Shown here in pieces: positions 13,847 to 39,712 of a stretch of 39,941 bases of DNA. The position numbers and the translations under genes are program-made. A model generated the notes under the pieces. It was not told the origin of the DNA and ran no database searches. It was given only the letters and a program-made list of their open reading frames with translations. Source of the DNA: Reclinomonas americana ATCC 50394 (taxonomy: Eukaryota); the NCBI GenBank assembly GCA_048213135.1, contig PS015321.1:1-39941 (forward strand), read 5' to 3'. Every line of letters begins with the position of its first letter. Positions within the stretch are counted from its first letter, which is position 1.

Positions 13847-15283
13847 ATGAAGGTCGGTAGCAGATGTCGGGAAAGCAGAGTGGGAGAGAGCGCGAGTGTT
13901 TTTGAGCAGAGTGTCATGATACTTTTGTTGTTGTTGCTGTGTGATGCACACACCGTGTGCATGCACTGGTGCTGTGCTCTCGTGCGTGCGTCTCTTGTGT
14001 GTGTGAGTGCGTCTCGTGTGCGGTGGCGGAGAGGGAGAGAGTGCGTGTGTCTGTGGTACATGTGCCCATGGAGATGCAAATGCGCGACCACTCACGCGCC
14101 CCTCTTGCCCTCTGTTCCCCGCGCTCTCACTCGCATCTGCACGTGGAGGTAGTGCGCGTTTCTCGAGTGTGCCTGTGCGTTGTGTTTGTCAGTCGCAATA
14201 GAGAGTATGACTCTTTTTATGTGAGTCACACTCATCAGACCTCTCTCTCGCTCTCTCCCTTCCATCTCTTCTCCTGCACACATGACCATCATCACTCCTT
14301 ACAAACAGGGCGTACTTGAAAGAGAGTGTGTGTGTGTGAGAGAGAGTGAGAGAGAGAGAGTAGGCGGCCATGTCTTTCGCCTCCCCGCAGTGACTGACTG
14401 TGCCCGTCGTTCTGCGAAACAGTTGAACATTGCGGACCCCGTGTCGGGGGGTCAGAAGACCTTTGAGTTCGAAGACGAGCGTCGCTTGTTGAGTCGTGCC
14501 CTTGTGCTGCTGCTGCTGGTTGTTGATGTGCATGGCACTCACACGCACGCTCGCACGCACACACACACACACAGGCTGTGCTTCATGGACAAGCGCATCT
14601 CGCAGGAGGTGGCCATGGACGACTGCGGTGAGGAGTTCGCCGGCTACATTGTCAAGATCACTGGCGGTCACGACAAGCAGGGTTTCCCGATGTACCAGGG
14701 CGTGTTGCTGCCGTCGCGTGTGCAGCTGCTGCTCCCCGGACGTTGAGTCTTTGTGTTGTCGCCGCCACCACCACTTGCCAGCTGTGCCAAATCGCTGATG
14801 TGTGTCTGTGTGCAGGGAGCTACTGCTTGACCCGCGGTCGCTCGGGCGAGCGCCAGCGCAAGTCTGTGCGTGGTTGCATTGTGGATCACGACATTAGCGT
14901 CATCAACTGCATCATTGTGAAGCGCGGCGCCAACCCGATTGCCGGTGTGACTGACAAGAACGTGCCGGCTCGCCTCGGCCCCAAGCGTGCGAGCAAGATC
15001 CGCCGCATGTTCGACCTCGACGAGAAGGACGATGTGCGCAACTTTGTCGTGCGCCGTGTCATCAAGCGCGAGGGCAAGAAGGACTACTCCAAGGCACCCA
15101 AGATTCAGCGACTCATCACCCCGATCCGCCTGCAGCGCAAGCGCACTCAGGTTCGTCCCCCGTCCACGTTGCTGGGAGTGCTGCGACTGGGGAAACTCAC
15201 TACTGCTGTTCTCGCGCTCCACAGCTCAAGCTGAAGCAGGCTGCCCGCGAGAAGACCGCCAAGCAACGCAGTGCTTACCTGGA
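13847..15283 (+). CDS. RPS6: 40S ribosomal protein S6 (eS6); exons 13847-13852, 14423-14487, 14575-14741, 14816-15150, 15225-gap
   Basis: [23 protein letters not shown]...[15 protein letters not shown]...RKSVRGCIV...[11 protein letters not shown]...[11 protein letters not shown]; the 3' end is lost in a gap. Confidence 0.97.
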
Positions 15284-22173: not shown

Positions 22174-24452
22174 TGTGTGTCGTGTCNNNNNNNNNNNNNN
22201 NNNNNNNNNNNNNNNNNNNNNNNNNNNNNNNNNNNNNNNNNNNNNNNNNNNNNGGTGGGGGAGGGAAGGGGGGGAAGGCGTGGGCTGCTGTCAGTCGAAG
22301 CACGCCTTTCTCTGTCTCTCGATTTCATTGCACGACAGCACGCCTTGGAATCTCTGTCACAGACTCTGGCTTGTGTCATCTTCCGTTGTGTTCTTCACTC
22401 TCTCGTTTTCAAGCACGCGCTGTGATGCCCTCTTGTTTCTCAATACGACAGCGCATCTTCGGATCTCTGTCACGGACTCTGTCTTGAGTCATCTTCATTT
22501 TGTTCATCTCTCTCCTCGTACACAAGCGCATGGTGTATTTAGCTCGACAGCGCACCTCGAGGTCTTTCACGCAGACTCTGTCTTGCGTGATCTTCATGTG
22601 TTCATCTCTCTCTCGTACACAAGCACACGCTGTATTTAGCTCGACAGCGCACCTCGAGATCTTTCACGCAGGCATCATCTTCGTTGTGTTCATCCTCGTA
22701 CAGTGGCACGCGCTGCGATTCCCTCTTGTTTCTCAATTCGACAGTGCGCCGCTGGATCTTTGCCACAGACTCTCTCTTGAGTCATCTTCGTCGTGTTCAT
22801 CACTCTCCCTCCTCGTACACTAGCACACGCTGTGATTTCCTCTCGTTCTCGTAGCTCGACAGCGCACCTTGGGTTGTGTGCCACAGTCTCTGTCTTGCAT
22901 GACCTTCATTTTGTTCATCTCTCTCTCCTCGTACACAAGCACACGTTGTGTACCCTCTCGTTCTCTTAGCTCGACAAGTGTACTTGGGATCTTTGTCACA
23001 GACTTTGTCTTGCGTCATCTTCATTTTGTTTATCGCCCTGTCAATCTCTCTGGGTCTCTCTCTCTTTCTCACTTTCTCTCTCTTTCTCTCTCTCCTCATC
23101 AATCTCCCTCTCACTTTCTCCCCTCCGTCACTCCCGCAGAGCTGAACGACGAGCTGCAAGTGTTCCTCACCCAGACCAACGCGGAAATCAAGAGAGCGCA
23201 AGACATTTTGAAGCAGCTCGATGCCGAGAACAAGTTGCGTCGTAATAATCCTCCTGTTACCTTCCCCCCGGTCGCTCATTCGCCATTCTTTTCTCTTCGC
23301 AGCGCCTTCAAGGGTGGTTCTGGCGAGAAGCGCATGCGTGAGAGCCAGTTTGCCATGCTGGTGCGCACGCTGGCGGCCAAGACACGAAGGGTGCAGGAGT
23401 CGGAGGGCGAGGCGCTGATGCGCTACCGCACTCGCCTGAAGGAGGAGATTCATATTGGTGCGTGACGTGAGTGACGAAGAGTGCAGGTCGCTTTTCTTCT
23501 TGCTCCTATGGATTGTTGATGTCTCGCTCTTCTCTCTCTCTCTCAGTCTTCTCATTCTCTCACTCTCCCCCGCTTTACTCCTCCTCCCTCGTTGTTTCTC
23601 TCTCTCTCTCGCTCTGCCCTCCTCACTCTGTTCCCCCTTCCTCCCAACTCCGCTCACGGTGGTTCTCTCTCTCGCTCTGCTCCTTTCTACCCTTCCACCC
23701 TTCCCCTTGCCCCTTCCTCCTTCCCCCCTCCCCCTTTGCCCCTTCCTCCTCCTTCCTCCTCCTTCCTCCGTCCTCCTTCCCCACCTCCCCCTTTGCCCCT
23801 TTCCCTTCCTCCCCCTTCCTCCCCCTTCCCCTCACCCTTTCCCTCACAATCTCATCGCAGCCGACCCGACTGCCTCGGAGGAAAAAGTCGAGCAGTACCT
23901 CAACGCCGGCCAGTCGCAAGTGTTCGCCGACATGCTCTTCTCCAACTCGGCCACCGCGCACACCATCAAGACCACGTACGAAATGGTGAGCCGCTATGTC
24001 TGTGTTGATGTCTTGAAGCCGCTGGTGCGTGTGCTCAAAACAACTCCTGTTGTTTTCTTTTGCCTGCAGGCCGTGGAAAAGTACCGCGATTTGCTTCAGC
24101 TCGAGCAGAGTCTGGAGGAGCTGCACGAGGTGTGTGTGTGTTGCATCCGTGTCATCATCGTAGTCATTTTCCTTGCGCCCCTTGCCTGACCTCGTCGTGG
24201 TGCAGCTCTTTGTGGATTTCAGCAACTTGACGTTCCAGCAAGGCGCCGCCGTCGACCAGATTGCCGCCAACATTGAGAAGGCCGACAATTATGTGGCGCA
24301 GGGCACGCAGGCCCTGTACGATGCCAGGAAGCATCAGAAGAAGGCCCGCAAGTTGGTGAGTGTGGGATGCGGGAGCGGTGGAGTGGAGCTTGTCGTACAC
24401 ACAGTGCTCACTGACACACGTCGTCGCGCAGATGTGCTGCTCTATGATGTGA
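22008..24452 (+). CDS. Plasma-membrane-type syntaxin (Qa-SNARE) with no transmembrane anchor; ends MCCSMM
   Basis: N-peptide MKSRLDDARR (22008-22037); Habc exons 23140-23233 and 23303-23457; SNARE motif LEQSLEELHE|LFVDFSNLTFQQGAAVDQIAANIEKADNYVAQGTQALYDARKHQKKARK; last exon 24432-24452. Some N-terminal exons are missing, probably in the gap. Confidence 0.88.
22300..23035. repeat. Intronic degenerate minisatellite in the syntaxin gene
   Basis: Recurrent CACAGACTCTGTCTTG.GTCATCTTC, CTCGTACACAAGCAC and AGCTCGACAGCGCACCT. Confidence 0.8.
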
Positions 24453-24569
24453 CGAGGGCTGCATGCACTATTTCGGGGGTCGCATGTGCCGTGTTTTCTT
24501 TTCTTTACAGGGGTGTTGGTTTCGATGAATGCAAACTTTGTTCTTTTTGTTCAAAAATCGCGCGTGTAC

Positions 24570-24980
24570 ATGCCTTGATTTCCTCCTCAACAACCCCGTC
24601 GTCTCTGGTAATGTTCTTCGTCCGCGTGCTCTGCGATTCGGTTGTTTTTCCACTCACTCGTGCAGCATTGGTGATGAGCTCGCCTGGGTATTATTACACT
24701 CAGCGGTGTCTTGATTTCCTCCTCAAATCTGCGAGGCTTGTCATTTCGCCTCCGGTAATGTTCCTCGTCCGTGTGCTCTTAGATGCGGTTGTTTCTCACT
24801 CGCTTGTGCAGCATAGGTGATGAGCTCGCCTGGGTATAATTACACTCAGCGGTGCCTTGATTTACTCCCCAAACAAGCTGCGAGGTCGCCCCCGGTAATG
24901 TTCCCTCGTCCGCGTGTTCTTCGATTCGGTTGTTTCTCCACTCACTCGTGCAGCATTAGCGACGAGCTCGCCTGGGCTCA
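24570..24980. repeat. Three imperfect tandem copies of roughly 145-160 bp downstream of syntaxin
   Basis: CTTGATTT...GGTAATGTTC...GATTCGGTTGTTT...GTGCAGCAT...GAGCTCGCCTGGG occurs three times. Confidence 0.85.
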
Positions 24981-25485
24981 GCTTGTCCACCGTTCCCCCG
25001 TCGCTGCGTCGTTGCCACCTCCTTCTCCGCCTCCCGCGGCTCCCGCACCGGCAATCAAGGCACCACCACCAGCAACAGCACCGCCAGCAGCTCCACTTGG
25101 CTTCCTCACCTGGCAGCCACCATCGCTGTTCGCTGGCCACTCGTGTGACGACGACTTTTCTACGCCATTTGACCCGTTGTCTACGAGGTCGATACTGGTG
25201 AGTTTTCCGATATTTCTCGAAGTTGCGTTGTCCATTCCTCGCCCTTCCCCTCGCCTTCCACTTTACTTAATGTTTGAGCAGGCTTTTATATATCACACAC
25301 GATCTCGAGCCTGTCACAAAATGAGCTTGCACCTTCGTCCTGTCCCATACGACCGTTGGAACACAACACAGGAGCACTTGTCTCTCGCAGAATGAGGTGA
25401 GATTGGTCGACAGTGATGGAGACACACACGCGCTTCATTCGTCCACAATCACAATCACATTGTTCGCTCACAATCAGTTTTCCTC

Positions 25486-26061
25486 ATGATCACTCCAATG
25501 TGCAGTGCCCCGCGACAGAGTCCATTGGAGATGGCCTTGCTCGGCAACGTGCAAGCACTGCGCGACTTGGTGGCACACGAAGGCACCTCGCCTCTCCTCG
25601 AGGTGAACGAGCTGGGCCAATCCGTGTTTTTCGCGGCCGCCACCGAAGGCCAGCTTGCTGTATTGGAGTATCTTTGGGAGGAGAGCGGAGTTGGCCCACA
25701 GCTTGCATTGCACGTTGGCGCCGATGGAGTCACGCCACTGATGATTGCCTCGAATTACGGGCACTTAGACGTCGTTGAGTGGTTGCTCGCGGATGAGAAA
25801 CGGTGTCCGCCGGCAATGGTTCGCGCAGTGACCCGCGAAGGCGACTTTTACCCGCAGTCCACTGCGCTGCATTATGTGGCGGGCTCCAGTGGTGACGAGG
25901 GAATTGTGCGGCTCCTTGCCACTCGGTATCCGGACCTCATTCCGATGGTGAATGAGCAGGGCAAGACGGCGGCTCAGTGGGCGCGTGACGATCACAAGAC
26001 GGCGTTGGCCGAGCTGATCGAGTCTCTGTATCCGGGGGGTGAGTCACGCATGTTTGTCTGA
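25486..26061 (+). CDS. Ankyrin-repeat protein, intronless
   Basis: DGVTPLMIASNYGHLDVVEWLL, STALHYVAG...IVRLL and NEQGKTAAQWA motifs. Confidence 0.88.
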   Translation: MITPMCSAPRQSPLEMALLGNVQALRDLVAHEGTSPLLEVNELGQSVFFAAATEGQLAVLEYLWEESGVGPQLALHVGADGVTPLMIASNYGHLDVVEWLLADEKRCPPAMVRAVTREGDFYPQSTALHYVAGSSGDEGIVRLLATRYPDLIPMVNEQGKTAAQWARDDHKTALAELIESLYPGGESRMFV

Positions 26062-26657
26062 TCATCAACTCTTGCTCATGCTTCTGTGTGCTGCAGCACC
26101 CCCGTCGTGAGCGGAGAGCTAGCGCGCAGTGTTCCCTGTCTGCAAAGAGTGTGACTGACGATGAGCAGTGAGACAACCGCTGCCATCAAGGCTGGTATTT
26201 GTGTGCTGCAGGCTTGCACACTCAATATACCTGCTGTTGCCTGTGTTGTTGGCGAATGTACGCGAGTGCAGGAAGGTCATCTCGTCGCCGTTTCTGGCCA
26301 TGGCGCTCGCTCAAGGTGGTAGTCGTCATGCAGCTGTGCTGCTGTTTCAATCAAGACGTGCCCTGCACGACCTCGGAAAAACGCAGAGCGTCTATGCAAG
26401 TGCGTCAAATCCGCTGGTCAACCTCGCTCATGCAGTGAAGATCGCAGTTCTCGCTGCTACTTGCTTGGATCGATATCGAGAGCGAACACACACTCAAGAC
26501 TTGTGCTGTGCTGATGTTTTGGATATGGTTGGACTTGGTCAGCAAGACAGCTGTTGCTTGTTTGCTGGTGATGTGTTGTCAAGGCCGACGCTCGAACACG
26601 CATCAATATCGGTCATGTCCGCTCGCCCTCGCTTTTATTGTTTCGTTGTTTGTGACG

Positions 26658-27286
26658 ATGAAGAGCGCGCGCAAGCCCACCACCTCTGTGAGCAAGCCCA
26701 CCACCTCCCACGGCGACGACTCTCCCCCGTCCTTTGTGGCGGCACTCACCTACTTTTTTGTGCCTCTCTTTTTCCCGCTCTGCACCGTGTGGTCCTTCCA
26801 CCACACGGGCGGAGGTGGCGCGTGGACGTTCCTCTCGTTTGGCATCTCGTTTGTGCTGGTGCCGCTGATGGATCTGCTCATGGGAGAGGACAAGTCGGGC
26901 CCGTTCTCGGAGAAGCAGGTGGAGGCCATGAATGAGCGGTGAGTGTGAGAGGGGGAGGATATGAGGGAGAGAGGGGAGAAGGGGGGAGAAGGGGGGAGAG
27001 GGAGAAGGGGGGATAAAAGAGAGAGAGAGAAGAGAGAAAGGGTGAGAGAGAAGGGAGAGTGATGATTGAGAAGAAAGGAAGAATAAGGAAGCGGGAAAGA
27101 GAGATTGAGAGCGTGAGATTGAGTGTGTGAAGAGAGAAGAAAGAGAGAGAGAGAGAGTGAAAGAGTGAGAGAGGCGAGAGAGCAGGGAGAGAGAGAAGAG
27201 AGATGCAGAAGGACATGAATACTCTTTGCTCAGTGTCACCCTTGCTCCCCTCTCACTCCTCTCTTTCTCCCCTTCTCTCTCCCCTT

Positions 27287-27331
<45 letters not shown>

Positions 27332-27720
27332 CTCTCTACTCGTCTACGTTACGTACTACGTACGTACGTACGTACGTACGTACGTACCGTACGTACTACT
27401 ACTACTNNNNNNNNNNNNNNNNNNNNNNNNNNNNNNNNNNNNNNNNNNNNNNNNNNNNNNNNNNNNNNNNNNNNNNNNNNNNNNNNNNNNNNNNNNNNNN
27501 NNNNNNNNNNNNNNNNNNNNNNNNNNNNNNNNNNNNNNNNNNNNNNNNNNNNNNNNNNNNNNNNNNNNNNNNNNNNNNNNNNNNNNNNNNNNNNNNNNNN
27601 NNNNNNNNNNNNNNNNNNNNNNNNNNNNNNNNNNNNNNNNNNNNNNNNNNNNNNNNNNNNNNNNNNNNNNNNNNNNNNNNNNNNNNNNNNNCTCTCCCTC
27701 TCGTGTCGTCGTCTTCGTCT

Positions 27721-27759
<39 letters not shown>

Positions 27760-27773
27760 CTTCTTCTTCCTTC

Positions 27774-27804
<31 letters not shown>

Positions 27805-29210
27805 TCCTCTGTCACAGCAGGATTTTTTGTCACGAAAGATGCAGAAATTCCTTCGTTACCCCGCGCCCTTCTCACTCTTCTCACTCTTTTCCTCTCAAGT
27901 CTCATTCCTCCCCTTCTCTCACATTCCTTTTCCTCTATTCTCCCTCCTCTCTCTCTCTCTCTCCCTGCCTCTGCACGAAAGATGCACATATTCCGTGATT
28001 TCCCCGCGTGCTCACTCTTCCCACCTTAGCCCCGAATTCCGCTACATTTGCTACCTGTGGGTCCCGATCAACATTGCGCTGGTCATGTGGGGCTGCTGGC
28101 TGGCCGGCACTGGCCGTCTCTCCGCGGTCGAGTTTATGGGCCTGTCGCTCTCGATCGGCCTCATCAACGGTGGCTCGTTCACTGTCGCCCACGAGCTGTC
28201 GCACCAAAAGGACGAGCGGTGGCTGTCGGATGTGATTCTCTCTGTGTCGGCGTACATGCACTTTTCGATTGAGTTGCGTGGCCACTTTAGCTGACAGCGG
28301 CGACGATTTTGTGCTGATGACGCGGTGCCAGGCATCCGCTCGGGCACCACGTGAATGTGGCCACTCCCGAGGATCCGGCGTCGGCGCGCTACAAGGAGTC
28401 GTTCTACCAGTTCTGGCCGCGCACCGTCAAGGGCAGCTGGCTGTCTGCGTGGAAGATTGAGAAGACGGTTCATCTCAGATTCCTCTCCTTCTTCTGCCCC
28501 CCTTCTCTCTCTCTCTCCCCCTTACTGAGAGCATCGCACAGCGCCTGGAGAAGCTGCATTTGCCCGTGTGGAGTGCACACAACCGCATGTTGTGGTACAT
28601 TGTGGCGCCGGCCAGTATTGCTGTCGGCGTGTTGGTGGCGCTGGGTGTCATGGGCCTCGTTTTCTGGGTCTACCAGGCGTTCCTGTCGTTCACCGTGTTC
28701 GAGGTGAGTGTGACGCACACAGCAGGCAAGATGATGTTTCTGCACTAACCGTGCGCCGCCTCAGATCATCAACTACGTCGAGCACTACGGCCTCGAGCGC
28801 AAGCGCCTGCCCGACGGGCGTTACGAGCCGGTGGGAGTGCAGCACTCGTGGAACAGCAACACCCTCGTCACGAACTACATTTTGCTGAAGTTGCCGCGCC
28901 ACTCGGATCACCACATGAATGCGTGGCAGGTTGGTGTTCCGTGTTGCCGTCCTCGCTTCTCATACATACGTGCTCACCATTTCCTTCTCTCTCACACCCG
29001 CACAGAAGTACCAAGCGCTGCGCAACTTGGAGGGTGGTCCCGAGCTGCCGGCCGGTTACTCAGGTACATTGATTCCCTCTCTCAAAAACGCTGTCCAGCT
29101 CACTCCCCACATCCTGCACAGTGATGACGCTCCTGGCTCTGGTGCCGCCGCTGTGGTTCAAGATCATGAACCCGCGTGTCGAGGCTTGGCGTGCCAAGCA
29201 CCTGGCGTGA
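26658..29210 (+). CDS. alkB: Alkane 1-monooxygenase (AlkB/AlkM family membrane di-iron hydroxylase); exons 26658-26938, 28030-28272, 28332-28467, 28542-28703, 28765-28929, 29006-29063, 29122-29210
   Basis: All family motifs appear in frame after splicing: AHELSH, EHPLGHHVNVATPEDPASAR, NYVEHYGL, HSWNSN, LPRHSDHH, PELPAGY and LALVPPLWFKIMNPRV. Confidence 0.93.
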
Positions 29211-29482
29211 TGGAATCAACTACTTTTCGCCTTCCAATCACAATGCAGTGAAGGCAACACCCTCTCCCTGTCGTTGACCAAATACGGACACTGTTGTATT
29301 TTTTCTCCCTTCACACAAACCGAAACCATCAAGCGACACACAGATATGACAACACCCACGCACGTTGCAAGCGCCGCGGGAGGGGGGGAATACGATGAAA
29401 AAAAGAATGAGACACTCTCATCAGGCACACGAGAAAAAAAGAGAAAAAGGGCACTGGCTTCCGCGATTTGGGGGTAGGAAAG

Positions 29483-31590
29483 TTAGAGTGTGAGCGCGTT
29501 GAATGCCGAGCGGCTCTTGCGGCACACGCTGGGCCCGATCTCGTCGTACTCCTCCTTCTTGACGACCCAGTTGACAAAGTGTGGCAGCGTGGCCAGCTGG
29601 CTACCGCCGCACCACACGGCGTATCGCTGGAAGTCGTGTGAAATGACGTTGACCTCGATTTCGGCGACCTAATAGGGGGGAGAGAAGGGGGAAGTGAGGG
29701 GAAGAGAAGAAAGGGACAAAGGGGAGAGAAGGGGGAAGAGAAGGGGGAGAGAAGGGAAGAGAAGGGGAGAGAAGAGGGAAGGGGAGGGGAAGGGGAGGGA
29801 GAGAAGGGGAAGAGAGAAGGCGAGGGGAAGAGAGAAGAGAAGAGGGAAGAGAAGGGGAAGAGAAGGGGGAGAGAAGGGAGAAGAGAAGGGGGAAGGGGAG
29901 GGGAAGAGAAGGGAGAAGAAAAGGGGAAGAGAAGGGGAAGAGAAGGGGAGAAGGTGAAGAAATGAAAGCGAGGAGAGGGGACGGGCGAGGGAGAGAGAGA
30001 GAGAGAGAGATAAGAACTGATCGCGCGCAACAGCAGTCTGCTTTCACAATGTAGCCGTCCACTCGCTCGTCGAATTCCAACGCGTCGTGCCCTCTCACTT
30101 TTGGCTTCTCTTTCAATATTTGCACTCAGCACACACTCGACGAGTCTGCGTCCTCTGCCTCTCGCTTTCTCTCTTACATTCGCACTCACTTACGCCTCAC
30201 TCAACGTGCGCTCTCTCTCTTCTATGCACCCATGCGCTCGCTTCTGCGTGGCATTTCAGATATCTGACAAGTCGATTACTTCGTCCTCTCGCTTTCTCTC
30301 TAACATTCGCACTCACTCTCGTGTCAAAGTAGAGAGTAAGAGAGCAAGAGCGTTGAGCGAGCATACTCAAAGAACACATGGAGAGAGCGAGAGAGGAGGA
30401 AACAGACTCGTCGAGTGCACGCATCACAGATGTCACTTCACACTCAACGAGGTTGCTCATCTTTCTCTCTCTCTCACTCACTCACAGTGTTCCTCAGTCT
30501 TGCTCATCCACACGCTCGTTCATCCGAGCGGTGCAACAGACGCCTCTCTAATTCTCTTTGCTCTCCTCCCCTCCTTCCCCACCAATTCCTACTCTCCCTA
30601 CGCAACAGCAGCTGCGCTTCCTGGGCGCACACCGGCACGCGCCATGCTTCGCTCAATGCGCTCATTCACAATGTGCTTGATGTCGCGCTGCAGGCGCTTG
30701 TCAAAGTTGCTGAACATGGTGGAGCCGCCCGAGAGCACAATATTCTGCCGTTATACAAGAGCGCACGAGAGAGTGAGCTGCTGCCGTGAGAGACCGCGGG
30801 CATTGCTGCATACGACGACTCAGCACCTTGTACAGTCCTCGTCGGTAATCAATGGGGCACGATTGAATCGCCTGGTCGACCACTTCTGGCAGTGCCGTGG
30901 TGAAGTCGGAGCTGAAGATTTCCGGCGAGAAGAAGAGTTCGGGGCCGAGGAATTGCTCAAAAGCCACGTCGAATGTGAAGGACTGGTGACAGCAGTGAGC
31001 GTGAGATGAATGAAGAGAGGAGGACATATAATATAACCCATCGCAAACAAACCTCTCCGCGCTGTGTCTTGGAGGTGTGCTTCTTGACCTTAGAGGGGTC
31101 CGTGTCGAAGGCGGCAAACTCGGACGCCAGATCTCTGCACACGTACGAGTACTCCTCCTTGACCTTTTGTGCCACGCTCAGAGCATCCTCGGATGGGATG
31201 GTCTTCTCGCGCTCCATCAGCAGCTGGCGCACGAAGCGGGTGATGACGTTGCCGGCCATGGGGATGTGCTTGATGGCGGCGCCAATGACGAAGCCGTCGG
31301 CCTGTGGAAAAGGGAAGGGAGGTGAGACGGAGTGGAAGGAGAACAAGGGGGAGGGGGACGAGAGAAAGGAAAACAAGGGGATTCGTGGATTCGAGTCTCA
31401 TCTCGCTACTTCCACAGCTCTGTCTTCACATGCTTTATCGCCATATCTTACAACTGCATATCCTTTGGTCTGGTGCACAGCAATCGCGTCCTCTGCATCT
31501 GCTTCACCACTCCTACTCAGCCATTTACAAAACGACCTAAACTCGTCAGCTTCTGAGGAAAAAGGAAACGTCAGGCGTTTTGAGTAGTTC

Positions 31591-31643
<53 letters not shown>

Positions 31644-33494
31644 CACCTAGAGCGCACCAGTGTGGGCCAGGAGGGAAGGCGAAGACGGGAAGATGAAAGG
31701 ACAGGCGTTTCCTTTCTCTCGACTTCTCACAAGACGCCTCGTCTTCTCTCCCCTTCTTCAACTGCTCACGCATGCAAATCACTCTATCCTCTTCCTCAGC
31801 TACTCAACACCTAGCCTTTCCTCCTCTCTTCCCTTCTTCCACTGCTCACACAAGCCTGGCCAATCACACGCTAAGCATCTTATTTCTTCACTCTTCCTCA
31901 GCTACTCAATACCCCAGGCCTTTCCTCCTCTCTTCCCTTCTTCCACTGCTCACACAAGCCTGGCAAATCACACGCTAAGCATCTTATTTCTTCACTCTTC
32001 CTCCACTATTCCATAAACCAGGCCTTTTCTCCTCTCCCTCACTGTCGCGCTCGCAGTATCTCTTTTTCTCTTATTCGCCAACTCGCAAAACGCCACTGGC
32101 CTTTCTTTCTCTCCCTGTCTGTCTCAGCATGTCTTTTCCTTTGAAAACTCTCATAGAAACTTGGCCTTTCCTCCTCTTCCTCATTATCACGCTCGCAGTC
32201 TCTTTTCTCTCTTATTCCACTGCTCACTGACCGCCTGTCATTTCTTCTCTCCTTTCAGTATGACTTTATTCTCTCTTTCTCTCACAAAACACCCGTCTTT
32301 TGCTCCTCCCTCGCACTATCACGCTCGCAGCATCTCTCTCTTCTCTTATTCTACTCTTCACAGACCGCCTGTCGTCGTTTTCTCCTTTCCCTTCAGCATC
32401 TCTCTCTTCTCTCATTCTCTCACAAACGCCTTTCCGCTTCCTCACTCCCTTCCTCTCCCTCAATTTCCCTCCCACGCGACTCACCACCGGGATGACGTGC
32501 GTCACACCATCACCAGAGTCAATGACCGTACCCGTCGATGCACCGCGCAGACCCAGACGCGCCACCTTCTTTGCGCCCCACGACGCAGCCATGGCAAGCA
32601 TGGCTTGCACGGCAATGTCCAGGCCTCGCACATTGAAGGTCTCAAACATGATTTCGGCCACGTACTCACGGTTCTCTGGTGGGCTGTGGGAAGGGAAAAG
32701 GGTGTCGGAATGAGAGAAGGATCGAAAGAGAAAACCGAGATGAACGCCGTCGCAACTTCATCGGAGGCTCCGTCTGCACATCAAAACAGTGATCAGCCTC
32801 CGAGGTTCACCAGCACGAGCAAGACAGCTCACACGCAAACGCACCAACAACACCAGCTGCTCCTCGGGCTCACACCGCAGGTACTTGAAGAAGCAGTGTT
32901 CCCACAAGCGCTCAATCTGATCCCAGTTCTCGATCTTGCCCTCCTTCATCGGGTAGGCCAGGGTCGAGTAGCCAGCCTTGTGCTCCAGAGCCTCGTCGCT
33001 GCAGAAATGTGAGACAAACACGCACAGGTGGGGTGGAGAATGACAAGCTAGTGTGCCACGAACCCGACCAAAAAGTCCAGGTCGCGCATTCTGGAGAGGG
33101 TGAGCGACAAGTGAGCGAATACTCGAGATGGCACGACATTGAAGGTATCTTGCTGGTCTTTTAACATAGCAAAAAGAAACGAATGCATGTGTGATAGAAC
33201 ACAGGGCACTGCCTGCCCTCTCGGTTTGTGCGAATGTGTGCAAGACACGGAAGGCGTCCTCTCGGATGCCTGTTCACCCTGTGCGCTTCAGCAGGCGTGC
33301 CTGCTCGACTGCTCTCACCAACAGAAGGTGTGTGTGAGAGAGAGAGAGGGGAGAGAGAGAGAGAAAGAGAGCGAGAGACAGAAATACAGAGAGAGATCAA
33401 GTATGGATAGAAAGTAGACGTTCTCTCGCTTGTTTGTGCACCCTGTGCGCTACAGCAGGCGTGCCTGGCGTGCCTGCTCGACTGCTGTCACGCA

Positions 33495-33530
<36 letters not shown>

Positions 33531-34119
33531 CAAATACAAGGCAGGCACCCTCTCGGATGTCTGTTCACCCTGTGCGCTGCAGCGTGCCTGCTCGACTGCC
33601 TTTGCGCACAGAGGCCTGCTCGACTGCCTTCGCGCACAGAGGTGTGTGTGTGTGTGTGTGTGTGTGCGTGTGTGTGTGTGTGCGTGAGCGTATGTGTGTG
33701 AGAGTCAGAGAGTGCGTCTGCCTGTCATTCATCGACAGGTCACCTCGCACGCCCGCTCAAACCGCCTACACAACGCCTATACATAAACACCCACATCATG
33801 CAACGCAACTCCGCAGGTCCAGCAGCACGCGGCGCACGTCCCGCTATGAGAAGAGACAAATGCAATCAGCGCAAGGAATGCTCGGAGAAAATAAATCCCT
33901 CAATCATCAACATCTCACACAAACACGCAGAGAATGCACAAGCACAGCAAGCGCACACAGAGANNNNNNNNNNNNNNNNNNNNGCGCTGACACTGAGAGA
34001 GACATACCCTGTTCCATTGCTGTTGTGCACAGAGAGAAGAAGAAGTCAGTCGCTGTTATGTTGCAAGCAGGCAGACACACACGCCGCAACTCGATGACGA
34101 CAGCCTGGTGACCTGACAT
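29483..34119 (-). CDS. ARP3: Actin-related protein 3 (Arp2/3 complex), at least 11 exons
   Basis: [106 protein letters not shown]. The exon following NGTG was not found and is probably in the gap at 33964. Confidence 0.94.
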
Positions 34120-37122: not shown

Positions 37123-38151
37123 NNNNNNNNNNNNNNNNNNNNNNNNNNNNNNNNNNNNNNNNNNNNNNNNNNNNNNNNNNNNNNNNNNNNNNNNNNNNNN
37201 NNNNNNNNNNNNNNNNNNNNNNNNNNNNNNNNNNNNNNNNNNNNNNNNNNNNNNNNNNNNNNNNNNNNNNNNNNNNNNNNNNNNNNNNNNNNNNNNNNNN
37301 NNNNNNNNNNNNNNNNNNNNNNNNNNNNNNNNNNNNNNNNNNNNNNNNNNNNNNNNNNNNNNNNNNNNNNNNNNNNNNNNNNNNNNNNNNNNNNNNNNNN
37401 NNNNNNNNNNNNNNNNNNNNNNNNNNNNNNNNNNNNNNNNNNNNNNNNNNNNNNNNNNNNNNNNNNNNNNNNNNNNNNNNNNNNNNNNNNNNNNNNNNNN
37501 NNNNNNNNNNNNNNNNNNNNNNNNNNNNNNNNNNNNNNNNNNNNNNNNNNNNNNNNNNNNNNNNNNNNNNNNNNNNNNNNNNNNNNNNNNNNNNNNNNNN
37601 NNNNNNNNNNNNNNNNNNNNNNNNNNNNNNNNNNNNNNNNNNNNNNNNNNNNNNNNNNNNNNNNNNNNNNNNNNNNNNNNNNNNNNNNNNNNNNNNNNNN
37701 NNNNNNNNNNNNNNNNNNNNNNNNNNNNNNNNNNNNNNNNNNNNNNNNNNNNNNNNNNNNNNNNNNNNNNNNNNNNNNNNNNNNNNNNNNNNNNNNNNNN
37801 NNNNNNNNNNNNNNNNNNNNNNNNNNNNNNNNNNNNNNNNGGCGGAAGGAAACAACGGTCCGCACAAGGAGTGCAGGGGCCCGACGAGCCAGTAAACAGT
37901 GACAAAGCCAGCGGATCAGAACGGCTGATTGGATAACAGAGGTGACTCAATGAGAGGACCTCGATTAAAGAGTTCGCAACAGGAGTGGAGAGGAGAAGCG
38001 CGTGGTGCAAAAATGTATCAGAATGCCAAAGGATTTTCGCCAAAGCGCGACATCTGGTAGACAACCCAAGAACAAAAGTCTCCTGCCGCTATCTCTCTCC
38101 CCTCCCCTCCTCCCCTCCCCTTCCCTCCCCCTCTTTTTCCCCTCCACAAAC

Positions 38152-39712
38152 CTCATCAAAGTTCTCATCGGGCTTCCCCGACGTGCGCGCCACCTGCCGG
38201 CGCTTGGCGTACCACCGCGAAATGAGCTTCTCGTCGACGTTGAACTGGGCGGCCAGCTCGGCACGCAGGTCCTTGGAGACGAAGGGGTTCTTCACAAAGT
38301 GCTGCTCCAGCACCTGGTTCTGGTCCTCGTTGAAAATGGCGCGCGTGGTGATGGAGGGCTTGGCCGAGTGCATGTCGCGGCCCTGCTTGCGCGCACGCGC
38401 GCGCTCCGACGTGAACCAGCTGCCGACCTGTCGCGGGTCGCGCGACAGCGTGCGTGCGATACGATCCTGCTGCTCCTTGGAGGGGGCGCACTCAATGGCA
38501 AACTCGGCACGCAGAATCTCCACCTCGGCCTTGGTGAACTTGTTGTACTTGCGCACCGGCTGGTCGGGGCTGCGCTGCGAGGCCGACGACTTGGAGGACT
38601 CGGATTGCGGCGTCGTCACGGCCACGGACCCGGAAGTGAGAATGTGGTGATGGTGCGGCGGAGTGCCCAGAATGGCCGGCTGTTGCTGCAGCTGCAGTTG
38701 CAGTTGACCTTGTTGCTGTTGATGTTGCTGGTATTGGTGGAGGTAGTGGACCGCTTGCTGCCAGGCCTCCTTCATGGGTGAGGGAGCGGAGGACATGCCG
38801 GACTGCGCGGGAAGGCGAAGGGAATATAAGGGGAGTGAAGGGCAAGGAGGAGGAGAAGCGAGAGAAGGGCTTGGAAAAGGGAAAGTGCGAGGAGATAACA
38901 ATTTCTTACTCTAACAGAGCCACAGTGTGAGTGCATGTGTGCAACGAGTCTGACTGTGTTTTGAGCATGAACGTCTATCCATGCCCCTCTCTCTCACGCT
39001 TTCGAGAGAGAGTGTGTGCGTATGTGTGTGCGTAGTGTCTGATGAAGAGAAGTGCGAGGATAACAGTGTCCCCTCGTCTCTCTCACAAACGCACATGAAT
39101 AGAGAATGAGATGCAGAGAGAGACGGACACAAAGTCCTCCTCTCTTACTCGCATACCAACATACACACATCCAACACGTTTCTTTCTCGCTCCCACTCTC
39201 ACTTTCCCTCATTTTCTCTCTCTCACCTGCGGACTCTGGAACGAGGGCATTCCACCAACAATACCCGTCGACGACGACGGCGTAAACAGCGACGCAGAGA
39301 CGCCAGAGACGGGCGCCGCCGACGCCGTCGTCGAGTGGAACGGGCTGCCGAGCGCACCGTAAAACGACATCGGTGGCGAGTACACAAAGTGCCCGGGTGG
39401 CGACGTCGGTACGACCGAGCTCGCCGACGTTGTTGTCGTCGTTGTCGTCGAGGTGGTTGTTGTTCCCGTGCCCGACGACGGCTTGAGAATGGCCGGCAAC
39501 GACGACGTCGGGAATGCGTTGAACGAGAACACGGACGAGGGTGCAGCAAAGGCGGATGACGACGATGCGCCACCAGCAGTCGCAGCAGAGTCGACAGAGG
39601 GTACAGAGATAATGTTGGTGGTGGCGCTCTGCGTCGGCAACGCCGGTGGTGGTGGTGGCGGCGGAGGTGGCGGCGGTGGTGGTGGTGGTGGTGGTGGTGC
39701 GTCGTCCTCCAT
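38152..39712 (-). CDS. Double-homeodomain transcription factor (exons 39712-39227 and 38802-38152; both ends uncertain)
   Basis: HD1 RKYNKFTKAEVEILRAEF...PSKEQQDRIARTL...QVGSWFTSERAR; HD2 RAIFNEDQNQVLEQHFVKNPFVSKDLRAELAAQFNVDEKLISRWYAKRR; Pro-, Thr- and Gln-rich N-terminal region. Confidence 0.88.

Follow-up and report, generated by a model that had tools for sequence, protein, structure and literature searches.

AlkB is treated as a bacterial enzyme in the structural and review papers that we consulted: the string "Eukaryot" occurs nowhere in the main text of the two 2023 structure papers (PMC10113152 and PMC10110569) and once in a review of electron partners. Described systems closest to the locus reported here are FtAlkB of Fontimonas thermophila (structures 8F6T and 8SBB) and the P. 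putida/oleovorans GPo1 enzyme. The di-iron ligands of FtAlkB are His137, His141, His167, His171, His172, His272, His311, His314 and His315 together with Glu271 (PMC10113152), and its chain-length gate is Ile54, the corresponding gate in P. oleovorans AlkB being Trp55 (PMC10113152, PMC10110569). Evidence for AlkB in protists is scattered. An "alkane 1-monooxygenase family" of ciliates is named in PMC9485055, which cites Cid et al. 2017; in a lake mesocosm, more than 10% of alkB reads were assigned to the ciliate Stylonychia (PMC11068069); and K00496 appears among 33 transcripts and 20 proteins tied to xenobiotic degradation in Willaertia (PMC7285305). Our literature search recovered only such passing mentions, and no paper devoted to eukaryotic AlkB. 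The gene that we describe from Reclinomonas americana adds to this record, and is a clean counter-case to the treatment of AlkB as bacterial.

The window that we analyzed is a stretch of 39,941 nt from R. americana ATCC 50394 (PS015321.1), and it holds an AlkB-type gene on the + strand at 26658-29210, with seven exons and six introns that are all of the GT..AG type. The spliced coding sequence is 1134 nt long, is in frame, and yields a product of 377 aa. Exon 1 (26658-26938) opens with an ATG at 26658, the start chosen in the original prediction, with the reading frame open further upstream; it encodes residues 1-93 plus two bases, comprising a hydrophilic N-terminus and the predicted TM1 and TM2. 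Intron 1 (26939-28029, phase 2, GTGAGT..TTAG) carries GA, CT and TACG microsatellites, and its length is an estimate because a scaffold gap of 285 N lies inside it (27407-27691). Exon 2 (28030-28272) encodes the predicted TM3 and TM4 and the first histidine box (HELSH), and it breaks off two bases into the Glu codon of the second box. Intron 2 (28273-28331; 59 nt, donor GTTGCG, acceptor CCAG, phase 2) interrupts that Glu codon of EHPLGHH, so that exon 3 (28332-28467) completes the second box and adds a conserved VATPEDPAS segment. After intron 3 (28468-28541; 74 nt, donor GTTCAT, acceptor ACAG, phase 0) comes exon 4 (28542-28703), with the predicted TM5 and TM6 in the hydrophobic residues 235-276, and then intron 4 (28704-28764; 61 nt, donor GTGAGT, acceptor TCAG, phase 0), which has an ACTAAC branch-like site. 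Exon 5 (28765-28929) bears NYVEHYG (the third box, with the Glu ligand), HSWN and LPRHSDHH (the fourth box). The gene closes with intron 5 (28930-29005; 76 nt, donor GTTGGT, acceptor ACAG, phase 0), exon 6 (29006-29063), which was placed by the gene model and tblastn and covers the KYQALRNLEGGPELPAGYS region, intron 6 (29064-29121; 58 nt, donor GTACAT, acceptor ACAG, phase 1), and exon 7 (29122-29210), whose TGA stop at 29208-29210 follows straight after the AlkB core.

Further support for this model comes from tblastn with two full-length homologues, which hit each of the seven exons, in colinear arrangement, and no second AlkB copy in the window. In exon 1, the homologues P0028 and P0192 matched 26769-26939 and 26805-26918, respectively. 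The join between exons 1 and 2 is backed by P0243, a fragment of 130 aa that is 50% identical to the product across the junction, over the 127 N-terminal residues that are otherwise poorly conserved. Judged from its sequence, the locus is a real and intact seven-exon nuclear gene of the AlkB type. The original prediction of an AlkB gene split by six spliceosomal introns, one of them with a shifted donor (intron 2, GTTGCG) and one with ACTAAC (intron 4), is thus borne out, the spliced product matching bacterial AlkB at E ~1e-100.

The surroundings of the gene are those of a eukaryotic chromosome. Other genes in the window are RPS6e, a SNARE gene, an ankyrin-repeat gene, Arp3 and a homeobox gene, and the RPS6e and Arp3 exons were confirmed as eukaryotic housekeeping genes by their matches in the PDB. 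Arp3 lies on the - strand at 29483-33273 in several exons, with Pfam Actin matches on three ORFs; in the PDB, an upstream exon gave E 8.7e-22 against Arp3 and 7.9e-10 against Arp2. The last exon of this gene is an open frame at 29486-29668 (-), with the frame end at about 29483, that matches the C-terminal end of Pfam Actin (positions 356-407 of 410), so that it stands tail to tail with the AlkB gene, which ends at 29210. There is not a single N within 27692-33963. GC3 is 0.844 in the AlkB gene and 0.776 in eight coding segments of neighboring genes when pooled (range 0.667-0.857), and a GTT-type donor is common to the AlkB gene and an RPS6e intron.

Given this setting, an artefact, be it contamination from bacteria, a chimeric assembly or a dead pseudogene, would be a highly improbable explanation. 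The scaffold gap that parts exon 1 from exons 2-7 speaks for it. The tail-to-tail arrangement with Arp3 on contiguous sequence had been offered as an argument against contamination: it holds for exons 2-7, which lie together with Arp3 on a contig free of N, and fails for exon 1, which lies beyond the 285-N gap on a contig that also has the ankyrin and SNARE genes. An artefact would, however, also have to account for six canonical introns, two of which cut codons of conserved residues, for host-like GC3, and for an intact frame in which 47 of 51 invariant residues are kept. Because GC3 and intron style resemble those of the neighboring genes and Arp3 lies on the same contig as exons 2-7, the gene is not a contaminant, as had been argued from the sequence at the outset; with its six introns, host-like codon usage and Arp3 linkage, the contamination reading cannot hold for it.

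We next consider the family to which the product belongs. All four histidine motifs are present in it (HELSH at residues 148-152, EHPLGHH at 175-181, NYVEHYG at 277-283 and RHSDHH at 319-324), the third box reading NYVEHYGL over residues 277-284. A third box of the form NYxEHYG(L/M) is diagnostic of AlkB, and the most conserved stretch of our homologue alignment follows the pattern Ex[VI]NY[VIL]EHY. By BLASTP, the product is 43-48% identical to bacterial AlkB over residues ~30-375 at E ~1e-100, examples being P0001 (E 1e-103) and P0028 (48% over 341 aa); among named bacterial genomes, identity was 46% to a Calditrichaceae locus. Searches of the PDB with exons 1, 2, 3 and 5 singly returned two matches each, in every case the AlkB structures 8F6T and 8SBB in colinear order (exon 1 to 8sbb_A residues 38-81 at E 0.0016; exon 2 to 8f6t_A residues 89-167 at E 3.1e-13; exon 3 to residues 170-213 at E 3e-13; exon 5 to residues 269-321 at E 8.3e-19). 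No other family of desaturases or hydroxylases was represented among these matches. All named proteins among the best 120 matches of exon 5 were alkane 1-monooxygenase or alkB. A word-index search with exon 2 gave no match, and an exhaustive HMMER search with the same exon gave 238 (E up to 0.001).

In the alignment to 8f6t_A, each of the nine His and the one Glu that bind iron in FtAlkB falls on an identical residue in exons 2, 3 and 5. Measured against an alignment of 15 sequences comprising the closest homologues, the product keeps 47 of the 51 invariant columns and 21 of the 23 near-invariant ones, and neither His nor Glu is among the four invariant residues lost. When exons were scanned singly, Pfam FA_desaturase matched exon 5 at 30.6 bits (cut-off 29.7), exon 3 at 24.6 and exon 2 at 15, and had no match in exons 1 and 4; none of five exon translations matched NCBIfam, possibly because the exons are short. 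The same shortness may explain why only exon 5 clears the Pfam cut-off alone. Hydrophobic stretches, as found by a Kyte-Doolittle scan (window 19, threshold 1.5), occupy residues 24-47, 53-77, 100-119 and 235-276, the last being long enough for two helices; of the six helices expected, TM4 (about 125-145) lies below the threshold of the scan. The predicted protein is classed with the alkane hydroxylases of the AlkB type, which are di-iron enzymes of membranes. The complete set of boxes with NYxEHYG had been read correctly from the unspliced DNA, as had the AlkB rather than ordinary desaturase affiliation, for which 8F6T and 8SBB were the only structures matched in the four single-exon searches.

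The Reclinomonas protein resembles bacterial AlkB in its four histidine boxes, its ligands, its hydropathy (the weak TM4 apart) and colinearity over the whole core, whereas its gene has six spliceosomal introns and a place on a eukaryotic chromosome, lacks an alk operon and a fused or adjacent rubredoxin, and encodes Ser at the aligned gate in place of Trp or Ile. Stearoyl-CoA desaturase, Scs7p and the family of sterol C-22 and acylamide delta-3 desaturases share with it the histidine-box logic and the Pfam FA_desaturase domain; its third box, by contrast, has the AlkB form NYVEHYG, and none of them appeared among the PDB matches of the exons. In the PDB matches and in the names of the best exon 5 matches, the two indirect comparisons made, nothing placed the product closer to ordinary fatty-acid desaturases or sterol C-22 desaturases than to AlkB. 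The sterol C-22 desaturase idea was also dropped on the ground that the Tetrahymena enzymes are placed in a different family of the superfamily (PMC9485055).

Overall, we put at about 80% the probability that the locus is a native nuclear gene of R. americana whose 377-aa product, an integral membrane protein, is a non-haem di-iron oxygenase of the AlkB family. The sequence itself establishes the family, the gene structure, the intactness of the catalytic residues and the integration into the host; activity, substrate, electron donor and expression are inferred. The spliced product would form an AlkB core in which hydrophobic helices surround a cytoplasmic di-iron site of nine His and one Glu. 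If it works as bacterial AlkB does, a long aliphatic chain would sit in a membrane-facing tunnel and be hydroxylated at its terminal methyl group, in a reaction that would consume O2 and two electrons delivered by a separate, soluble carrier. Ser64 aligns opposite the Ile equivalent to Ile54 in the weak exon 1 match (E 1.1 to 8f6t and 0.0016 to 8sbb), and such a small residue at the predicted chain-length gate would favor long chains of about C13 or more. As had been noted from the sequence, no rubredoxin is fused to the product, whose C-terminus is the end of the AlkB core, so the donor would be encoded elsewhere; candidates are rubredoxin, ferredoxin/adrenodoxin and cytochrome b5. No rubredoxin-like motif occurs in the window, nor does any of its 132 ORFs match the ferredoxin, rubredoxin or cytochrome b5 families of Pfam. 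Residence in this lineage has been long enough for the gene to acquire its six introns and the GC3-rich codon usage of the host.

The AlkB fold and its di-iron chemistry could also serve another substrate. Our literature search found no demonstrated substrate for any eukaryotic AlkB-type protein, so "alkane" may be the wrong one, and the enzyme might act, by hydroxylation or desaturation, on a lipid of the cell itself or of its prey (a fatty acyl, fatty alcohol, ether lipid, isoprenoid or sterol side chain, free alkanes being excluded) with electrons from cytochrome b5 or ferredoxin. The labeled eukaryotes with AlkB-type genes are phagotrophs and not known hydrocarbon degraders, which fits such a role, as does the lack of rubredoxin in the window. 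A crude scan with one single regular expression placed a rubredoxin-like gene no more than 3 kb from alkB at 13 of 80 bacterial loci, and at none of 19 loci in the bacterial groups nearest the eukaryote rows, which points the same way. The membrane desaturase-like superfamily is, moreover, catalytically plastic, the sterol C-22 desaturases of Tetrahymena forming another of its branches (PMC9485055). Against a lipid substrate stands the retention of every metal ligand and of 47 of the 51 invariant columns, which means that the sequence gives no sign of a changed reaction. Alkanes are also abundant in prey, both cyanobacterial and algal, and cyanobacteria are named as a hydrocarbon source in the introduction to PMC10110569. 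On balance, a lipid substrate is a tentative alternative that we do not favor.

AlkB-type proteins also occur in ciliates (Tetrahymena, Paramecium, Ichthyophthirius, Platyophrya, Furgasonia and Pseudomicrothorax), Colponema vietnamica, Rhodelphis marinus and Dermamoeba algensis, so that the rarity in eukaryotes implied by the original prediction was overstated. Eukaryotic AlkB genes are a little-noticed set, of which the Reclinomonas gene is one more member. The other eukaryotic proteins are like it in family, in length class and in having no fused rubredoxin (Pfam lists PF00487 only); they differ in an identity to it of 31-46% and in forming, in the most careful of our trees, a clade that excludes it. 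Many of them are labeled "fatty acid desaturase" in databases. The nearest relatives that we found are P0384, P0328 and P0355, together with the fragment P0243, all from public assemblies. Unlike the window protein, P0384, P0328 and P0355 have N-terminal extensions of ~200 aa, in which there is no Pfam domain, and P0355, on a contig of 91 kb, shows apparent read-through into an intron. The clusters of P0288 and P0073 carry "alkane 1-monooxygenase" labels only, and a Protein Atlas search with P0328 returned bacterial AlkB clusters only.

Two accounts of origin have to be weighed. The gene may stem from a single AlkB lineage of long standing among eukaryotes, to which the proteins of ciliates, Colponema, Rhodelphis and Dermamoeba would also belong, through vertical inheritance with many losses or through spread among eukaryotes; or it may derive from an independent horizontal transfer from bacteria, perhaps together with the lineage of P0384 and P0328 and apart from the ciliate-type clade, with later intron gain and codon amelioration. 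All labeled eukaryote rows fall in one clade (15 of 15 in a 75-row clade with support 87 in FastTree; 13 of 13 in a 23-row clade with support 90/95 in the careful tree), and no row of that clade is named as bacterial in either tree, which speaks for a single old lineage; yet 10 of the 23 rows of that clade in the careful tree are without taxon names, several of the labeled rows come from transcriptomes of bacterivores in which bacterial contamination is possible, and the trees contain no red-algal, haptophyte or Naegleria sequences. In the careful tree, the window protein groups with P0384 and P0328 (support 96/86), and this trio stands outside the clade of all labeled eukaryotes, across its 90/95 branch, in a comb with bacterial groups (Calditrichota, Thermodesulfobacteriota, Oligoflexus and Sericytochromatia-type). 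This favors an independent transfer, as do the bacterial rows nearest by path length (the Calditrichaceae locus L001 and P0227, from a Desulfomonilia MAG) and the patchy spread among eukaryotes, and identity to the labeled eukaryotes is no higher than the 43-48% found with bacteria. Transfer nevertheless lacks, in trees without an established root, a supported bacterial sister group and a nameable donor lineage, and the placement shifted between the FastTree, quick and careful runs. Placements from FastTree and quick IQ-TREE, which variously involved Oligoflexus, Legionella and Cytophagales versus another bacterial-type group, were dropped as unstable.

Approximately unbiased (AU) tests did not reject joining the window protein to the eukaryote clade. 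With 67 rows, the tree forced to do so was 5.92 lnL units below the careful tree (p-AU 0.317), and with 94 rows it was 39.4 units above the quick free tree (p-AU 0.903). The original prediction allowed for both horizontal acquisition and ancient retention, and would have been countered by a place in a widespread, vertically inherited eukaryotic clade: the careful tree puts the protein outside the clade of labeled eukaryotes, and the AU tests allow it to join. Six introns and fully host-like GC3 fit a long residence and thereby an old eukaryotic lineage. The extensions of P0384 and P0328 and the read-through of P0355 suggest that this small group may itself be eukaryotic, in keeping with the same account. 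Taken together, we regard an old shared lineage as close to an even chance and an independent bacterial transfer as a real possibility that falls short of one. A fuller scenario, in which an old eukaryote-wide AlkB lineage, as opposed to scattered recent imports from bacteria, has the Reclinomonas gene and its two long-N-terminus relatives as a deep branch, draws on a donor other than rubredoxin (cytochrome b5 or ferredoxin) and enables phagotrophic and algal cells to oxidize the long-chain hydrocarbons that are produced in bulk by cyanobacterial and algal prey, seems to us unlikely.

The gain from this single locus is one further member of the eukaryotic set and a good gene model for it, and no new principle. 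Activity of eukaryotic AlkB genes, if it exists, would bias environmental surveys in which alkB is taken to come from bacteria, and the electron-donor problem in a rubredoxin-poor host would become a testable question. Should the fuller scenario of an old eukaryote-wide lineage prove true, protists would be a sink that has gone unnoticed in the natural cycling of hydrocarbons.

Hand-assembled from the sequence and then verified by script, the AlkB gene model (26658-29210, forward strand) joins seven exons (26658-26938, 28030-28272, 28332-28467, 28542-28703, 28765-28929, 29006-29063 and 29122-29210) into an open frame of 1134 nt, comprising 377 codons and a TGA stop. Six spliceosomal introns had been proposed from the sequence, and all six are indeed GT..AG; five are 58-76 nt long, while intron 1 is nominally 1091 nt, including a 285-N scaffold gap (27407-27691). 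Intron 2 interrupts the Glu codon of the second histidine box and carries the shifted donor that had been described (GTTGCG), and the ACTAAC put forward as a branch point is present in intron 4. With two full-length homologues as tblastn queries against the window, all seven exons were recovered colinearly and no second AlkB copy was found elsewhere in it. The choice of start codon is provisional, because the frame of exon 1 is open upstream of the chosen ATG (26439-26657) and offers other in-frame ATGs, including one at about 26514. By this predicted model, the window's AlkB-type gene is genuine and intact, a nuclear gene rich in introns.

The window contains 14 N-runs and is therefore a gapped scaffold. 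The top match for exon 2 in an exhaustive HMMER search, P0243, is a metagenome fragment of 130 aa. Over 127 residues it shares 50% identity with the model, unbroken through the junction of exons 1 and 2, and its homology starts near the chosen ATG. Exon 1 also aligns with the N-terminal helices of the AlkB structure 8SBB (E 0.0016). The gap in intron 1 conceals no exon. It is flanked by long GA-rich, CT-rich and (TACG)n microsatellites (26950-27406 and 27692-27990), which are probably its cause; a comparable GA-rich tract lies within the Arp3 gene (29680-30010).

The spliced product contains all four histidine boxes, HELSH (148-152), EHPLGHH (175-181), NYVEHYG (277-283) and RHSDHH (319-324), among them the AlkB motif NYxEHYG on which the original prediction relied. 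Searched separately against all PDB chains, exons 1, 2, 3 and 5 matched only 8F6T and 8SBB, both AlkB, and were colinear on 8F6T (residues 40-77, 89-167, 170-213 and 269-321). In Fontimonas thermophila AlkB (FtAlkB), nine histidines and one glutamate hold two irons (PMC10113152), and every one of these ligands is kept in the exon alignments to the structures. In scripted comparisons with bacterial AlkB proteins from our searches, the spliced product showed 43-48% identity over approximately residues 30-375 (E about 1e-100), and among named bacterial genomes a Calditrichaceae locus reached 46%. When the 15 closest homologues were aligned, the model proved to keep 47 of their 51 invariant and 21 of their 23 near-invariant columns. 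At a strict threshold, hydropathy picked out five of the six expected helices. In single-exon scans, Pfam FA_desaturase passed its cut-off for exon 5 only, and none of five exon pieces matched NCBIfam; the shortness of the pieces may explain these weak results.

A Pfam scan of the window's 132 long ORFs gave matches on eight. On the forward strand are ribosomal protein S6e (RPS6e; at least two exons, 14225-15231), a SNARE-domain protein (24164-24817) and, directly upstream of AlkB, an ankyrin-repeat protein (25417-26058); on the reverse strand are three exons of an actin-family gene (29486-33273) and a homeodomain protein (38092-38910). The actin-family gene is Arp3 (E 8.7e-22 vs. 7.9e-10 for Arp2); it is oriented tail to tail with AlkB, with about 270 nt between its last exon and the AlkB stop. 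The original prediction had placed the two genes on contiguous sequence; this holds for exons 2-7, while exon 1 lies beyond the gap. Contiguity apart, its description was correct, as the tblastn, motif and intron results agree. GTT opens three of the six AlkB introns (GTTGCG, 28273-28278; GTTCAT, 28468-28473; GTTGGT, 28930-28935) and also the one RPS6e intron inspected (GTTGAG, at about 14744). Introns with T at position +3 are uncommon, and this may reflect a peculiarity of the spliceosome in this genome. GC3 of AlkB is 0.844, compared to 0.776 pooled over eight neighbouring coding segments (range 0.667-0.857). This host-like GC3, the introns with a GTT donor common to RPS6e, and the adjoining Arp3 exclude bacterial contamination, as had been argued; a transfer too recent for amelioration is likewise excluded.

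With exon 5 as query, a word-index search scored 4215 candidates, of which 4198 were AlkB-type proteins at E up to 0.001. The best named matches came from a Sericytochromatia MAG and mycobacteria, and one match was a marine-protist transcript. Used as a query, this transcript retrieved ciliate genome proteins (Tetrahymena, Paramecium, Ichthyophthirius), many labelled 'fatty acid desaturase', and EukProt entries named by cluster look-up: Dermamoeba algensis, Colponema vietnamica, Rhodelphis marinus, Furgasonia, Pseudomicrothorax and Platyophrya. One representative protein (P0257, 371 aa) combines an N-terminal TetR_N domain with an AlkB-like stretch (212-290), and could be a fusion of a regulator to alkB, whether genuine or produced by gene calling.

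Trees were built with 80 named bacterial loci added, and without red-algal, haptophyte or Naegleria sequences. In FastTree (228 rows), the 15 labelled eukaryote rows all belonged to a single clade of 75 rows (support 87), in which no named bacterial locus occurred. The window protein's position shifted between FastTree and quick IQ-TREE runs. In FastTree, AlkB loci of Legionella (L002, L007), Leptospira (L004, L009) and an Oligoflexus MAG (L018), which are close to Cytophagales genes, lay near the window protein. As Legionella lives within amoebae, Legionella-protist exchange in either direction is worth considering.

In a more careful tree (67 rows, 385 columns, LG+C20+F+G4 PMSF, 1000 ultrafast bootstraps), all 13 labelled eukaryote rows fell with 10 unlabelled rows in a 23-row clade (90/95). 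The window protein formed a trio with two homologues, P0384 and P0328 (96/86), outside that clade and linked to several bacterial groups through an unresolved comb. In these two and in P0355, the nearest relatives of the window protein, the N-terminus is extended by about 200 aa, and no Pfam domain was found there. P0355, from a 91-kb contig, diverges from the sequence of its sister and ends shortly afterwards, which looks like read-through into an intron. We suspect that this group is also eukaryotic; it may represent eukaryotic AlkB proteins of a second, previously unnoticed group that bear a targeting peptide or an extra domain.

At this sampling, the phylogeny that the original prediction had called for is consistent with two origins. 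Placement outside the eukaryote-bearing clade is what an independent import from bacteria would give. Joining the window protein to that clade, alone or with P0384 and P0328, was not rejected by AU tests: with 94 rows p-AU was 0.903 and the constrained tree exceeded the quick free tree by 39.4 log-likelihood units, and with 67 rows p-AU was 0.317 and the constrained tree fell 5.92 units below the careful one. We give a probability of roughly 0.45 to the window gene belonging to one old eukaryotic AlkB lineage; an independent bacterial import is nearly as probable.

By homology, the window protein would use a histidine-rich di-iron centre to hydroxylate long aliphatic chains at their terminal carbon. 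Chain length is set at a position occupied by Trp55 in AlkB of P. oleovorans and by Ile54 in FtAlkB, where small residues are reported to allow longer alkanes to be accepted (PMC10113152; PMC10110569). Ser64 of the window protein aligns with this position, a lead rather than a result because the exon-1 alignment is weak. The protein ends right after the AlkB core and so has no fused rubredoxin (as predicted) or ferredoxin, and a motif scan found no rubredoxin motif in the window. In a simple motif scan, a rubredoxin-like ORF lay within 3 kb of alkB at 13 of 80 bacterial loci, compared to 0 of 19 in the bacterial groups nearest the eukaryote rows, so donors encoded separately seem usual for these members of the family. 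Donors described for AlkB include rubredoxin, fused rubredoxin and fused ferredoxin-reductase forms, with cytochrome b5 serving related desaturases (PMC8918992).

AlkB is presented as bacterial in passages of two structure papers and a review (PMC10113152; PMC10110569; PMC8918992). Elsewhere, ciliate desaturase-like enzymes are described as including an 'alkane 1-monooxygenase' family (PMC9485055, citing Cid et al., 2017). In a lake mesocosm study, the ciliate Stylonychia was assigned more than 10% of alkB reads (PMC11068069), and for Willaertia magna the transcriptome or proteome included K00496 (PMC7285305). In our literature searches, eukaryotic copies received only such passing mentions, and no paper dealt with the biochemistry of a eukaryotic AlkB. 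Eukaryotic AlkB-type genes are a known but neglected kind, to which the window gene adds one member.
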